Below are positions 37,191 to 40,040 of a stretch of 44,896 bases of DNA, piece after piece (position 1 is the first letter of the stretch; each line of letters begins with the position of its first letter). The position numbers and the translations under genes were made by a program. This DNA is from a virus. The notes under the pieces were generated by a model, which was given only the letters and a program-made list of their open reading frames with translations, ran no database searches and was not told where the DNA came from. The stretch is from the UHGV virus genome UHGV-0338188; one strand, 5' to 3'.

Positions 37191-38063
37191 ATGAGAGATT
37201 CAATGCAAATGCTTATGAGCAAGTTCATGGTCAAAACGGATGAAATGTGCGAAATCCACGGAATTGCGAAAGTGATTGCCAGAAATCAAAACGACATGAA
37301 ACCTTTTTGCGTTGAATGTCGCAGGTTGGAAATCGAACAGCAAAACAAAGAAAGAGCGGACAAAGCCTTACAAGCAGATATCAAACGCAAAACATATGAT
37401 GCACTGAAATATGATTCGATTTGCTCGGATGATGATGTTTGGAAAGCATCTTTCGACACGTTCCGGACGGATGGCAAAGATGCAGAAGCTTTGAAGATCG
37501 CAAAAGACAAAGCCAGACACATTGCCGGAGAGTACCTGGCGAAACGAATTGAAGTTGATGAAAATGGGAAAAAGAAGATCGTTAGAAATGAATTTAACAC
37601 GATTTTAACAGGCCCAGCCGGATCGGGAAAAAGCCATTTGGCTATGTCGATTATTAAAGCCGTCAACGAACATTCCGATCCCTGGCAAAGTTGTATTTTC
37701 GTTTCAACAGTCGATTTGCTGATGCTTATCCGTGATAGTTTTGGCAAGCCGGATTCGAAATTTTCAGAAGCAAACATGATCAATCTGTTAACAAATTGCG
37801 ATTTGCTTGTGTTGGATGATCTAGGAACAGAATCAAGTTTAGTAAGAAACGCTAATGAATCATCGGATTTTGTGCAAAAAGTTTTGTTTAGCATCTTATC
37901 GAGAAAAAGGACGATCATCACGACAAATCTTTCATCGGGTCAATTGATGGATATGTACAATCCTAAAATCATTTCTCGAATCAACAAGGGAGTAGGATTT
38001 GACGGAAAGCACGTGATCAAGATGCCGGATGATGTCGAAGACAAACGTATTTTATCGTTTTAG
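37191..38063 (+). CDS. DnaC/IstB-like AAA+ helicase loader
   Basis: Walker A-like TGPAGSGKSHLA and Walker B-like LLVLDDLG. GGTGG RBS before the ATG at 37191. Confidence 0.7.
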   Translation: MRDSMQMLMSKFMVKTDEMCEIHGIAKVIARNQNDMKPFCVECRRLEIEQQNKERADKALQADIKRKTYDALKYDSICSDDDVWKASFDTFRTDGKDAEALKIAKDKARHIAGEYLAKRIEVDENGKKKIVRNEFNTILTGPAGSGKSHLAMSIIKAVNEHSDPWQSCIFVSTVDLLMLIRDSFGKPDSKFSEANMINLLTNCDLLVLDDLGTESSLVRNANESSDFVQKVLFSILSRKRTIITTNLSSGQLMDMYNPKIISRINKGVGFDGKHVIKMPDDVEDKRILSF

Positions 38064-38118
38064 GCGAGAAGACTCCCACCTTAAGGAACGAAAGTAAATA
38101 GGTGGGAGATGAATCGCC
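38064..38118. repeat. left boundary hairpin (GGCGA..CTCCCACCT-loop-AGGTGGGAG..TCGCC), related to the hairpin at 39532..39562
   Basis: Stem of 9 bp plus 5 bp. The loop sequence TAAGGAACGAAAGT parallels TAAGCGAAGCGAAAGT in the right-hand copy. Confidence 0.5.
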
Positions 38119-38134
38119 TTTGAACAAGGGATGA

Positions 38135-38287
38135 CTACTTACCATCTCTATTGTCCAACTGTTCAAGTGCATATTGAATAAGATAAATAATTGTTTGGGT
38201 ACGAGTTGTGAAACCCTTCTTTTCTTTGAACTCGTCAATTCGTTTCAATAATTCTTTTGGATAACGCATATTCAAAACTTGCGACAT
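38135..38287 (-). CDS. ribbon-helix-helix-like small DNA-binding protein (50 aa; below the ORF-track size cutoff)
   Basis: Minus-strand ATG with RBS GGAGGTT and a 5-nt spacer. The MRYPKELLKRIDEFKEKKGFTTRTQTIIYLIQYALEQL pattern resembles Arc/CopG-type proteins. Confidence 0.45.
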   Translation of the reverse strand: MSQVLNMRYPKELLKRIDEFKEKKGFTTRTQTIIYLIQYALEQLDNRDGK

Positions 38288-38373
38288 TTTTTAACCTCCA
38301 TATTGTGTATTAAAATAATACATGATATAATCAATGTATATTATAATAATACACAACTGAGGGGTGAAAATCA

Positions 38374-39498
38374 ATGATTGTGAATAAAGCATATAAATTT
38401 AGAATCTATCCAAACAAAGAACAAGAAATACTGATTGCTAAAACAATCGGTTGTTCTCGTTTTGTATTCAATCATTTCCTCGCAAAATGGAACGATACTT
38501 ATAAGGCAACAGGAAAAGGTTTGACTTACAATTCGTGTTCTTCTCAATTAACCCAATTAAAGAAAGAATTAGTTTGGTTAAAAGAGGTGGACAGCATTGC
38601 GATTCAATCTTCACTCAAAAACCTTGCTGATGCATATTCTCGCTTCTTTAAGAAGCAAAACGATGCACCTCACTTCAAGTCCAAAAAGAATAAGGTTCAA
38701 TCTTATACAACAAAACACACGAATGGAAACATTGCCATTGAAGGCAACAAAATCAAATTGCCTAAACTTGGATGGATTCGTTTTGCAAAGAGTCGTGAAG
38801 TAGAAGGTCGTATTCTCAATGCAACAATTAGACGAAAATCAAGTGGAAAACATTTTGTATCCATTCTTGTAGAAACAGAAGTACAACCGTTAGAAAAAAC
38901 AGGTTCTTCTGTGGGCATAGATGTCGGCTTGAAAGATTTTGCTATTCTTTCAGATGGAACAAAATACAAAAACCCAAAATGGTTGCGTAAATTAGAAAAG
39001 AAATTAGCAAAAGAACAACGGATTCTTTCAAGACGTAAAAAAGGTGGTTCAAATTGGAATAAGCAACGAATTAAAGTAGCTCGTATTCACGAAAAAATTA
39101 CAAATACAAGAAAAGATTACTTGGACAAAATCTCTACCTATATTGTCAAGAACCACGACATTATCGGGATTGAAGATTTGTCAGTATCGAATATGTTAAA
39201 GAATCATAACCTTGCAAAAGCGATCAGCGAAGTATCTTGGTATCAATTCAGAACGATGCTTGAATACAAAGCGAAATGGCACGGCAAACAAGTTGTTGCG
39301 GTATCTAAAACGTTTGCAAGTTCTCAATTGTGTTCGTGTTGTGGATACAAAAACAAAGACGTTAAGAATCTAAATCTTCGTGAATGGGATTGCCCATCTT
39401 GTGGAACACATCACGACAGAGATATTAACGCAAGTTTGAATCTTAAAAATGAAGCTATAAGGCTTCTAACCGTAGGGACTACGGGGATAGCCTACTAA
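38374..39498 (+). CDS. tnpB: TnpB (IS200/IS605-family OrfB; RuvC-like RNA-guided nuclease)
   Basis: OrfB N-terminus [10 protein letters not shown]; Ruv[12 protein letters not shown], Ruv[14 protein letters not shown], zinc finger CSCCGY...CPSCG, Ruv[12 protein letters not shown]. Confidence 0.85.
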
Positions 39499-39590
39499 AT
39501 ATTCGCTCGATAGAGCGAAGTTCGTAGGAATCTCCCACTTCTAAGCGAAGCGAAAGTGGGAGTAGTTCAATCTAATGTTTCACATGAAAC
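39380..39590 (+). ncRNA. putative omega-RNA (right-end RNA) scaffold and guide region
   Basis: Hairpins CGCTC-GATA-GAGCG (39504..39517) and CTCCCACTT-N13-AAGTGGGAG (39532..39562) lie just 3' of tnpB. In characterised TnpB systems the guide follows the right end. Confidence 0.3.
39577..39590. promoter_or_regulatory. motif copy 5 (GTTTCACATGAAAC)
   Basis: Lies 8 nt upstream of RBS GGAGGG of the gene at 39612. Confidence 0.5.
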
Positions 39591-39611
39591 AAAAAATCGG
39601 AGGGAAAATTT

Positions 39612-40040
39612 ATGAAATTAGTTATCAACAGCGAAAATTTGAAAGTATCGATCGAAGCAAAAGGAAATTTGGATGAACGTCATGTGATTTCAGCGTACCA
39701 GTTAGCAACAGGAGATTTCAAAGCGCTATTTGTGGAAGAAGAAACAAATGCACAAACGATCAATTTAGATGGTTCAAAAGTCGGAAAAGGCGTAAGAGAA
39801 TTTGAGAAAGACAAAAAGTCGTTTGATCCAAGAGAAGCTGAATGGGTTCAAACAGAATTTATTTGCCCGGCGTGTGGGATCGAAGGAAGAAGAAACACGA
39901 TAAAAACAAACAAATATGTCAAATGCTATGAATGCAATACGAAAATCAAACTAGAAAGAGCCGTGCCAGAAAACGAAGAAAAAGAAACAGACAAAGCAGG
40001 AAATTATTACATCGCAAATGATTTCTTTGAAATTCAATAA
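39612..40040 (+). CDS. hypothetical protein with a C-terminal zinc ribbon (CPACG...CYECN)
   Basis: 142 aa; GGAGGG RBS. Confidence 0.55.
   Translation: MKLVINSENLKVSIEAKGNLDERHVISAYQLATGDFKALFVEEETNAQTINLDGSKVGKGVREFEKDKKSFDPREAEWVQTEFICPACGIEGRRNTIKTNKYVKCYECNTKIKLERAVPENEEKETDKAGNYYIANDFFEIQ

Follow-up and report, generated by a model that had tools for sequence, protein, structure and literature searches.

A probable ISGst2-type insertion sequence in a phage genome carrying tnpB and a divergent ribbon-helix-helix gene

The window analyzed here, a stretch of 44,896 nucleotides from the virus genome UHGV-0338188, harbors a tnpB gene in the phage replication module, next to a short gene for a ribbon-helix-helix (RHH) protein in the opposite orientation. 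This arrangement raises the question of what kind of element the two genes form, whether the RHH gene belongs to it, and what such a pair could do in a phage. Our results suggest, with good confidence, that positions 38056..39570 (1515 bp) are a non-autonomous insertion sequence of the IS200/IS605 family and the ISGst2 type, which carries tnpB, an omega-RNA and, as an accessory, the predicted repressor gene arc. Its order is left end (LE), arc on the minus strand, an intergenic region of 86 nt and tnpB on the plus strand.

The ends of the element were set by comparison with the empty site of Enterococcus phage fHoEfm07. This empty site reads ...ATTTTAT|TCTAATG, the window reads ...ATTTTAT|CGTTTTAGG, and the filled site as a whole has the form TTTAT|CGTTTT...GTTCAA|TCTAATG, in which a target-site duplication relative to fHoEfm07 is absent. 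The insertion point lies directly 3' of TTTAT (38051..38055, plus strand), the TAM and insertion target, which is phage DNA from the last codons of a DnaC-like gene, and the last bases of the element are TTCAA. TTTAT precedes the element in nearly all of the approximately 60 distinct insertion flanks listed, while the sequence farther upstream is variable. The right terminus ...GTAGTTCAA is found in all copies, and complete divergence begins immediately beyond it. The alignment confirmed a precise insertion. The original prediction was right about the element but placed its ends at 38064 and 39590, off by 8 and 20 nt, and the positions 39571..39590 that it included are phage DNA, which serves as the predicted guide. 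It also located the cassette correctly at the DnaC-like gene, but the insertion starts inside this reading frame and not after it. This gene of the replication module encodes a helicase loader, the C-terminus of which is changed from ...KRILF* to ...KRILSF*; the new stop codon comes from the element, and the ribosome binding site downstream of the insertion is left intact.

Both ends carry hairpins. The LE (38056..38121, plus strand) contains the hairpin CTCCCACCT...AGGTGGGAG at 38073..38108 (inverted repeat I2), enclosed by a GGCGAG/TCGCC outer stem at 38062..38119. As single-stranded DNA this hairpin has a folding energy of -13.4 kcal/mol (z = -4.5), which was equalled by 0 of 200 shuffles. 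The right end (RE; 39520..39570, plus strand) contains the hairpin CTCCCACTT...AAGTGGGAG at 39532..39562, the single-stranded DNA fold of which was likewise equalled by 0 of 200 shuffles (z = -3.2), followed by the TEM TTCAA at 39566..39570. The TEM differs from the TAM TTTAT at positions 3 and 5. The two hairpins have 9-bp stems and are related, imperfect and, with the ends defined by the empty site, still subterminal, in agreement with the IS200/IS605-like arrangement first proposed for them. Copies of both ends in relatives were collected by motif-anchored searches, as a strict hairpin regular expression missed many. The LE is kept across relatives and breaks off at 38121 in the arc-deleted copy of Enterococcus phage iF6.

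These features are close to those of ISGst2 from Geobacillus stearothermophilus. Meers et al. (2023, PMC10055086) reported for its nuclease, GstTnpB2, the TAM TTTAT and the end motif TTCAA. ISGst2 also shares with the window element the subterminal hairpins and an omega-RNA at the RE with a guide derived from the flank, and its TnpB cuts the empty donor site, as is predicted here. On the other hand, ISGst2 was mobilised by GstTnpA in mini-transposon excision assays and the text consulted describes no arc for it, whereas the window element carries arc, lacks tnpA and resides in a phage genome.

The tnpB gene (38374..39498, plus strand) encodes an RNA-guided nuclease of 374 aa with the Pfam domains OrfB_IS605, Cas12f1-like_TNB and HTH_OrfB_IS605. 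The protein scored 624 bits against NCBIfam IS200_TnpB, for which the cutoff is 425, and matched ISDra2 TnpB structures at E = 3e-110 over residues 1 to 364. Its RuvC triad is complete (D183, E267 and D350), the RuvC-III aspartate D350 stands in a canonical HDRD, and two CxxC pairs are present at 320 and 340, so the intact IS605-family TnpB with RuvC motifs and zinc finger of the original prediction was borne out. Compared with 11 relatives, the dN/dS of tnpB was 0.07 to 0.24, and by this measure the gene is under purifying selection across copies. ISDra2 itself, the TAM of which is TTGAT, comes from another host, carries tnpA and is without arc. Its TnpB-omegaRNA complexes (PDB 8BF8, 8EXA, 8H1J) agree with the TnpB of the window in the order of domains and in the catalytic triad.

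The lack of TnpA that was noted at first holds for the whole window of 44.9 kb, where tblastn with the Y1 transposases of two relatives as queries gave a best match of E > 1. Without its own TnpA the element is non-autonomous (tnpB-only, IS1341-like). A Y1_Tnp gene (E = 1e-44) does occur in close relatives, where it lies between the LE and tnpB.

The structured part of the omega-RNA scaffold was assigned by covariation to 39451..39570 (plus strand), overlapping the 3' end of tnpB and the RE. In an alignment of 46 sequences, 87.5% of the cells were paired, against 31 to 50% when the partners were slid, and 20 pairs showed compensatory changes; the observed values were reached by 0 of 500 shuffles. 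The conservation of this region ends exactly at the RE terminus. A search of Rfam gave no omega-RNA family above threshold, only a spurious miRNA match and the Enterococcus sRNA Ref70 below threshold. The predicted guide (39571..39590, plus strand) is the phage DNA flanking the RE and is identical at 20/20 nt to the sequence 3' of TTTAT in the empty site of fHoEfm07. The sequence required for the predicted cleavage, TTTAT together with guide identity at 20/20 positions, is present in fHoEfm07. In the window the matching site is preceded by GTTCAA and has no TAM, and self-targeting by the element is therefore not expected.

The arc gene (38135..38287, minus strand) is the divergent 50-codon reading frame with a strong ribosome binding site that had been described, GGAGG lying 7 nt ahead of its ATG. 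Its product matched PHROG 4738, 'transcriptional repressor', at E = 1e-8, and the N-domain of NikR was matched too. The AF2 monomer model (pLDDT 88.5) has an extended N-terminus and then two helices (beta-alpha-alpha). The top PDB matches in Foldseek were all RHH proteins, namely the NikR N-domain, Arc, CopG and RHH antitoxins, with probabilities up to 0.99 and rmsd of 1.1 to 2.3 Å, but the E-values were weak (at least 0.06), as is expected with a query of 50 residues. Pfam gave no match at E < 0.1, and no match to PDB sequences was significant (Arc at E = 1.4). The RHH assignment therefore comes from PHROGs, the modelled structure and its fold matches, which agree with the Arc/CopG type first recognized from the sequence pattern. 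The dN/dS of arc was 0 to 0.22, pointing to a gene that is under purifying selection across copies; for both arc and tnpB this signal is that of the element family, not necessarily that of the present copy.

The AT-rich palindromic region that had been noted upstream of tnpB holds two imperfect palindromes, O1 and O2, which are predicted operators without a strand. O1 (38304..38322) has the core TGTATTA-AAA-TAATACA at 38306..38322, comprises direct repeat D1 and inverted repeat I3, and shares bases with the candidate -35 for tnpB, with its inverted repeat centred at -60 from the tnpB ATG. The candidate extended -10 of the tnpB promoter (TGATATAAT; 38323..38331, plus strand) was identified by its consensus match, and it is kept in arc-positive relatives and in the arc-deleted iF6 copy. 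O2 (TGTATATTAT-A-ATAATACACA; 38335..38355; D1, I4) lies 31 bp from O1 with its inverted repeat centre at -29, and extends over the -10 of a promoter predicted for arc. The best minus-strand match of a promoter scan was TTCACC-17-TATAAT at 38368..38340, with a score of 10/12 in a scan that was not above chance (7 matches against 5.3 expected in shuffled sequence).

Comparison of relatives indicated that the half-sites of O1 and O2 change with the subfamily of the Arc beta-strand. The comparative set contains three Arc subfamilies, each with a matching operator type, and these three pairs are a ready specificity series for the study of RHH-DNA recognition.

We propose that Arc dimers would bind O1 and O2 over the interleaved divergent promoters and repress tnpB, and probably arc too. 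This proposal draws on other IS605 Arc proteins, for which repression was shown experimentally. Zedaveinyte et al. (2023, PMC10690162) noted Arc-like reading frames in tnpB elements, and Moon et al. (2026, bioRxiv 10.64898/2026.09.24.754181) reported that IS605 Arc binds a bidirectional promoter and represses tnpB, also in elements with arc and tnpB only. Regulation of the tnpB promoter is the best supported of the functions first suggested for the RHH protein. The pairing itself, which had been regarded as unusual, is already known: it was reported in 2023 (PMC10690162), characterised in 2026 (bioRxiv 10.64898/2026.09.24.754181) and is present in phages phiNIT1 and SPG24, and the present element is a further, phage-borne instance.

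The window element shares with the known Arc elements a small RHH gene inside the insertion sequence beside tnpB and, by prediction, a bidirectional intergenic promoter. The known elements have oppositely oriented binding motifs over -35 and -10, and the palindromes seen here over candidate -35 and -10 elements may have the same role. Several known Arc proteins have at most 50 aa and are often unannotated; the present one has 50 aa. The likeness to the tested proteins of P. xylanilyticum and C. botulinum (WP_094548610.1, WP_003367503.1) is one of fold and layout. The tested elements belong to Clostridia or Petroclostridium and often have tnpA on the arc strand, whereas the subfamilies found here are from Bacillales and the window element is without tnpA. 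The reports on Arc IS605 elements discuss no phage-borne case. As the predicted DNA contacts are N5, N7 and T9 in the tested proteins but N6 and R8 here, the present Arc may be an independent RHH lineage.

As to transposition and spread, TnpB with its omega-RNA would cut empty sites adjoining TTTAT, either the donor joint left by excision or the uninterrupted site of a related phage, for example fHoEfm07, infecting the same cell. The predicted target is TTTAT+TCTAATGTTTCACATGAAAC, and the version flanked by TTCAA is predicted to be spared. Recombinational repair from a filled genome would then copy the element in, which in a phage amounts to RNA-guided homing. New TTTAT sites would need a Y1 TnpA acting in trans from a hypothetical host-borne relative; that moves to new sites do happen is seen in sister Bacillus phages, the loci of the element differing between them. 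We infer Arc binding, promoter activity, the ends of the omega-RNA and TnpB cleavage from sequence.

A bolder reading, which we offer tentatively and hold to be rather doubtful as a whole, is that arc-tnpB in a phage may be a timed device of RNA-guided homing and competition, and that the tnpB promoter of this lineage is repressed by interchangeable modules. Infection starts without Arc protein, and hence an early burst of tnpB and omega-RNA is expected. The orientation of tnpB is that of the phage replication operon, and read-through could therefore express TnpB and omega-RNA regardless of Arc and may add to this burst. The burst would cut TTTAT-TCTAATGTTTCACATG in element-free relatives infecting the same cell (e.g., fHoEfm07), which would be converted or excluded, and Arc accumulating later would shut off the nuclease. 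Such a delayed repressor would have the role of the controller proteins in restriction-modification systems. In the T4 SegF/SegB systems of free-standing homing endonucleases, a nuclease between conserved phage genes likewise cuts the allele lacking it, and repair in the co-infecting relative copies the nuclease gene in, as is proposed for the element. SegF/SegB recognise the target by protein, however, whereas TnpB would use an RNA guide and the TAM, and unlike them the element has transposon ends and would be able to reach new TTTAT sites. 'Non-restorative homing' by TnpB in phages is listed as theoretical in a 2026 review (PMC13565253). If true, the bolder reading would provide the first natural case of super-Mendelian inheritance driven by TnpB between viruses. 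The present phage and fHoEfm07, sequenced phages of Enterococcus faecium that can be cultured, form a natural filled/empty pair, and with the 20/20 guide match and the correct TAM the pair makes homing between co-infecting phages directly testable.

In many arc-less relatives, a motif resembling a LexA box was observed at the same promoter position. This suggests, from the motif and its place, a second, host-dependent control of tnpB, of which no description was found in the searchable literature. Under the reading of interchangeable modules, some copies would rely on Arc operators and others on a host LexA box, and if true, the latter copies would tie nuclease expression to DNA damage.

It is also conceivable, though we consider it unlikely, that the cassette is an inert passenger left by one transposition from a host copy, with TnpB and Arc idle during infection. 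The element encodes no transposase, and the insertion could be nearly neutral because the DnaC-like protein is barely changed and the downstream ribosome binding site is intact. Against this, neither reading frame is disrupted and both show purifying selection across copies, all catalytic residues of TnpB are present, and compensatory changes maintain the omega-RNA structure. Moreover, exactly the same insertion occurs in a second Enterococcus phage contig that is about 94% identical, and related copies occupy different sites in the sister Bacillus phages.

Slightly less probable still is that Arc inhibits the TnpB protein in an antitoxin-like manner instead of repressing its promoter. Altae-Tran et al. 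(2023, PMC10691335) put forward such a model for archaeal RHH/MazE-TnpB pairs, in which the RHH protein was proposed to block guide and target binding by TnpB. RHH proteins are common as antitoxins, and the fold matches of Arc include the RHH antitoxins MazE, TacA and CopA_SO. In one related locus, L013, arc is intact and constrained while the neighbouring tnpB is decayed, which would also fit such a role. The archaeal systems share with the window an RHH gene beside tnpB, but there it lies upstream in the same operon, the RuvC-III aspartate is changed to histidine, the locus is non-mobile and a toxin-antitoxin function is proposed, none of which applies here. Membership in that class was rejected, as the two genes of the window are divergent, with no shared operon, and the active site of TnpB is canonical. 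The two palindromic predicted operators on the promoters, which co-vary with the Arc beta-strand, and the action of the tested IS605 Arc proteins at the promoter speak for repression of transcription. Most of the close TnpBs occur without arc, and TnpB is therefore no obligate toxin.

An iterated HMM search of the reading frames upstream of tnpB gave 35 small divergent ones, one in the window and 34 at related loci with the same layout, all with coding starts 80 to 90 nt ahead of the start codon of tnpB. The co-occurrence of RHH and TnpB elsewhere was confirmed in this way; plain tblastn with the Arc of the window found only 13 loci and missed the KLIKFP subfamily, which the HMM search recovered. 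About one in four close relatives has a homologue, always adjacent to tnpB and divergent. In every arc-positive copy, including chromosomal copies at unrelated Bacillales loci, arc lies between the LE and tnpB. Most TnpA-less relatives are likewise without arc, and arc and tnpA coexist in other lineages (Moon et al. 2026, bioRxiv 10.64898/2026.09.24.754181). The arc gene is a variable accessory module of the element, and the idea that the RHH gene had taken the place of tnpA was not supported. A profile search with Arc gave 412 clusters, and among the 120 listed all were from Bacillales.

An origin of the RHH gene as a phage regulator that adjoins, or was captured by, a TnpB-only element, as had also been considered, is hardly credible: small RHH repressors are common in phages and PHROG 4738 is a phage protein family, but the empty site of fHoEfm07 has neither arc nor tnpB (and so no RHH gene at this position without TnpB), the order LE-arc-tnpB is constant at unrelated sites, and tblastn of phage genomes found arc only inside this element. 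An origin of arc as ancestral phage DNA was rejected by the same empty site.

The same element was found at different loci in the Bacillus Nitunavirus phages SPG24 and phiNIT1, where arc and tnpB are present unremarked, and further copies are in Enterococcus phage iF6 and at many chromosomal sites. The 50-aa arc gene is often unannotated in these records. Hence, one arc-tnpB lineage is mobile between phage families that are not related to each other (an Enterococcus siphovirus, a Schiekvirus and Bacillus Nitunavirus) and also reaches the chromosomes of Bacillales. The arc-less iF6 copy was considered as an ancestral state and rejected: O1 was lost together with arc, but O2 is kept and the promoter region is identical to that of the arc-positive copy in the second Enterococcus phage contig, which indicates a deletion of 201 bp.

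Comparison with Enterococcus phage fHoEfm07 (PV296021; megablast), which lacks the cassette and is 94 to 97% identical to the window on both flanks, defined the ends of the element. The empty site reads ...AAACGTATTTTAT|TCTAATGTTTCACATG and the filled site reads ...ATTTTAT|CGTTTTAGGCGAG...AGTGGGAGTAGTTCAA|TCTAATGTTTCAC; the insertion therefore comprises 38056..39570 (1515 bp) and made no target duplication. All ORFs and repeats of the cassette described in the original prediction were found in this region, and the precise insertion it proposed was observed, but its ends had to be corrected to these positions. The insertion point lies within the final codons of the DnaC-like helicase-loader gene, whose C-terminus (region 38040..38063) changed from ...KRILF* in fHoEfm07 to ...KRILSF* in the window, as the left end of the element contributes the two terminal codons and the stop. 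A second phage contig (IMGVR_UViG_3300045988_103633, locus L094) has the identical insertion at the identical site. This contig lacks the 142-aa zinc-ribbon ORF of the window (39612..40040), which starts 42 nt past the right end, and the corresponding indel (window 39602..40027 versus L094:3712-3729) starts just past the guide region.

We fetched 160 loci encoding relatives of the window TnpB. The 5 nt preceding the left end were TTTAT in nearly all of the approximately 60 distinct flanks listed, with different sequence farther upstream, and GTAGTTCAA closes all right ends, followed straight away by complete sequence divergence. In the GstTnpB2/ISGst2 study, the TAM TTTAT was set by experiment and the end motif is described as differing from it at positions 3 and 5 (PMC10055086). 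This rule gives TTCAA, so that ISGst2 has the same TAM and end motif as the window element. The two related hairpins of the original prediction are the subterminal hairpins of the left end (LE, 38073..38108; z = -4.5) and right end (RE, 39532..39562; z = -3.2), and they remained subterminal once the ends were set by the empty site; none of 200 shuffles was as good in the single-stranded DNA fold. The tetranucleotide GAAT on the 5' side of the RE hairpin, together with TCAA at the terminus, is presumably the same pair as in IS608. The closely related Bacillus Nitunavirus phages SPG24 (L003) and phiNIT1 (L112) harbor near-identical arc-tnpB elements whose loci and flanks differ between the two phages, with TTTAT ahead of each copy. 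These differing loci indicate real transposition inside phage genomes despite the lack of tnpA.

The tnpB gene (38374..39498, plus strand) encodes 374 aa matching OrfB_IS605, Cas12f1-like_TNB and HTH_OrfB_IS605, and scored 624 bits against NCBIfam IS200_TnpB (cutoff 425). Residues 1 to 364 align with the solved ISDra2 TnpB structures (E = 3e-110), the catalytic D183, E267 and D350 are retained, as are both CxxC pairs, and dN/dS versus relatives was 0.07 to 0.24. No Y1 transposase was found in the whole window by tblastn with two Y1 queries from relatives (best E >1). Y1_Tnp proteins (E = 1e-44) are encoded by Sporosarcina and Bacillus relatives (L063:2062-2490 and L032/L043). These read ...FWTRSFCLLTAGG versus ...LWNPSYFVATV in the L108-type TnpA; compared by eye, Phe replaces the SYF tyrosine, which we take to be the catalytic residue.

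The omega-RNA was analyzed in an alignment of 46 sequences covering the final 170 nt of the element. The consensus fold showed compensatory changes in 12 of 20 pairs. In the five-helix structure, which includes the RE hairpin, 87.5% of cells were paired versus 31 to 50% with the partners slid by 1 to 3 columns, and both-side changes occurred in 20 pairs; none of 500 shuffles reached the observed values. The 20 nt past the RE (39571..39590) match, base for base, what follows TTTAT in the empty site of fHoEfm07, and in the window they are preceded by GTTCAA, not by the TAM. The most useful product of this analysis is a natural pair of phages, one filled and one empty, in which the guide match is perfect. 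Homing of TnpB into co-infecting phages is treated as theoretical in a 2026 review and has been demonstrated only for plasmids (PMC13565253). Window 39464..39584 also gave a sub-threshold Rfam match to the Enterococcus sRNA Ref70 (RF02841; 22.6 bits versus a gathering score of 115). Ref70 and the omega-RNA scaffold have a AACCGUAGGGACUACGGGGAUAGCCUA core in common, and Ref70 may also be an omega-RNA, belonging to an IS200/IS605 element of E. faecium.

The arc gene (38135..38287, minus strand) is a divergent ORF of 50 codons upstream of tnpB, with GGAGG 7 nt ahead of its ATG. Its dN/dS versus relatives (0 to 0.22) marks it as a real gene. Pfam and PDB sequence searches with the 50-aa protein were uninformative; PHROG 4738 ('transcriptional repressor') matched at 1e-8 and NikR N-terminal RHH domains matched weakly. 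The AlphaFold2 model (24 homologs, pLDDT 88.5) has an extended N-terminus followed by helices 11-24 and 29-48. Its top Foldseek PDB matches were all RHH proteins (NikR, Arc, CopG, MazE/TacA-type antitoxins), at probability <=0.99, rmsd 1.1 to 2.3 A and E >=0.06, weak as expected for 50 residues. The model and fold search agreed with the RHH-type protein proposed from the sequence.

The arc gene is absent from the fHoEfm07 empty site, and its homologs in Bacillales chromosomes are always divergent and adjoin a TnpB of the window's clade, also where another IS has split tnpB (L012) or tnpB has decayed (L013). Co-occurrence of the RHH gene and TnpB in other genomes was thereby confirmed, and by these comparisons arc belongs to the element. 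In Virgibacillus halodenitrificans (L013:2745-4138), arc is intact and constrained (dN/dS 0.03) beside a frameshifted tnpB, and in Geobacillus sp. C56-T2 (L012) an intact, constrained arc adjoins a tnpB broken by a DDE-type IS; arc may outlive its nuclease partner in these loci. An iterated HMM search of the ORFs upstream of all fetched TnpBs gave 35 arc-like ORFs including that of the window, all on the opposite strand to tnpB, with the coding start 80 to 90 nt ahead of the tnpB start codon. Three subfamilies, named by their beta-strand (NMRYP, VVLRFP and KLIKFP), make up this set. Such ORFs were present at 16 of the 80 genome loci and at 8 of the 24 close viral loci; none was found with TnpBs below 55% identity in the HMM search and fetched loci. 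The Arc profile search of a large protein database returned 412 clusters, and in sequenced phages tblastn detected arc solely within this element, in Bacillus Nitunavirus phages. The idea that arc stands in for TnpA was wrong: the unique close loci comprised 23 with arc, 11 with a co-directional Y1 tnpA and 53 with neither.

The anatomy of the element had been read correctly; the pairing of an RHH gene with TnpB, regarded as unusual, is in fact known. Arc-like RHH ORFs with TnpB were reported in an IStron study (PMC10690162). A September 2026 preprint used ChIP-seq, reporters and mutagenesis to show that Arc proteins encoded by IS605 elements bind the bidirectional promoter of the transposon and repress tnpB; its tested set included arc + tnpB-alone elements, and phages and Bacillales are not discussed (10.64898/2026.09.24.754181). 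The RHH/MazE-TnpB pairs described in archaea by Altae-Tran et al. (PMC10691335) are arranged otherwise: they form operons, their RuvC-III is rearranged, and a toxin-antitoxin role has been proposed for them. Our element is a phage-borne addition to the known arc-tnpB IS605 elements.

Two imperfect palindromes, the candidate Arc operators O1 (TGTATTA-AAA-TAATACA, centre -60 from the tnpB ATG) and O2 (TGTATATTAT-A-ATAATACACA, centre -29, 31 bp from O1), occupy the 86-nt arc-tnpB intergenic region. A candidate extended -10 of tnpB lies between them (38323..38331, TGATATAAT; consensus match only). The top promoter-scan match, TTCACC-17-TATAAT, lies on the minus strand, where it overlaps both O2 and the tnpB RBS, and is likewise a consensus match only; the scan as a whole showed no enrichment over shuffles. 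In the other Arc subfamilies, two palindromes are again laid out in this way, with different half-sites, GATATAC-type in VVLRFP and AGTATAT-type in KLIKFP. Of the in-silico evidence for binding by Arc at this locus, this protein-DNA co-variation is the strongest, and the suggested regulation of the tnpB promoter by the RHH protein is probable.

In Enterococcus phage iF6 (MT909815; L002:3001-3130), the element has a clean deletion of 201 bp (window 38122..38322) that takes out arc and O1 and spares the extended -10 and O2; tnpB is therefore probably de-repressed in this phage. What is retained matches the arc-carrying copy L094 exactly, and therefore the arc-less state is secondary. Arc was 100% identical to the window in L094 and 98% in L004 (region 38135..38373), with TnpB at 91% and 84%, whereas SPG24 showed the opposite pattern (Arc 62%, TnpB 90%). 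The element is thus a mosaic, and these opposed identities suggest recombination exchanging the arc-operator module between elements.

Among the unique tnpB promoters of close relatives lacking both arc and tnpA, 20 of 53 had GAAC-N4-GTTC with no more than one mismatch, 7 of them exact (shuffled mean 1.2, maximum 7). No exact copy was found in arc- or tnpA-carrying elements. The motif, the most novel by-product of the analysis, abuts the -10 on its downstream side at a constant position, some 32 to 36 nt ahead of the tnpB ATG, as in GAACGAATGTTC; examples are L018:2440-2500, L031, L036, L062, L065, L087 and L090. A literature search found no paper tying LexA boxes to tnpB promoters. The motif agrees with the Bacillus LexA consensus CGAAC(n)4GTTCG and suggests that tnpB could be under SOS control instead of Arc control.
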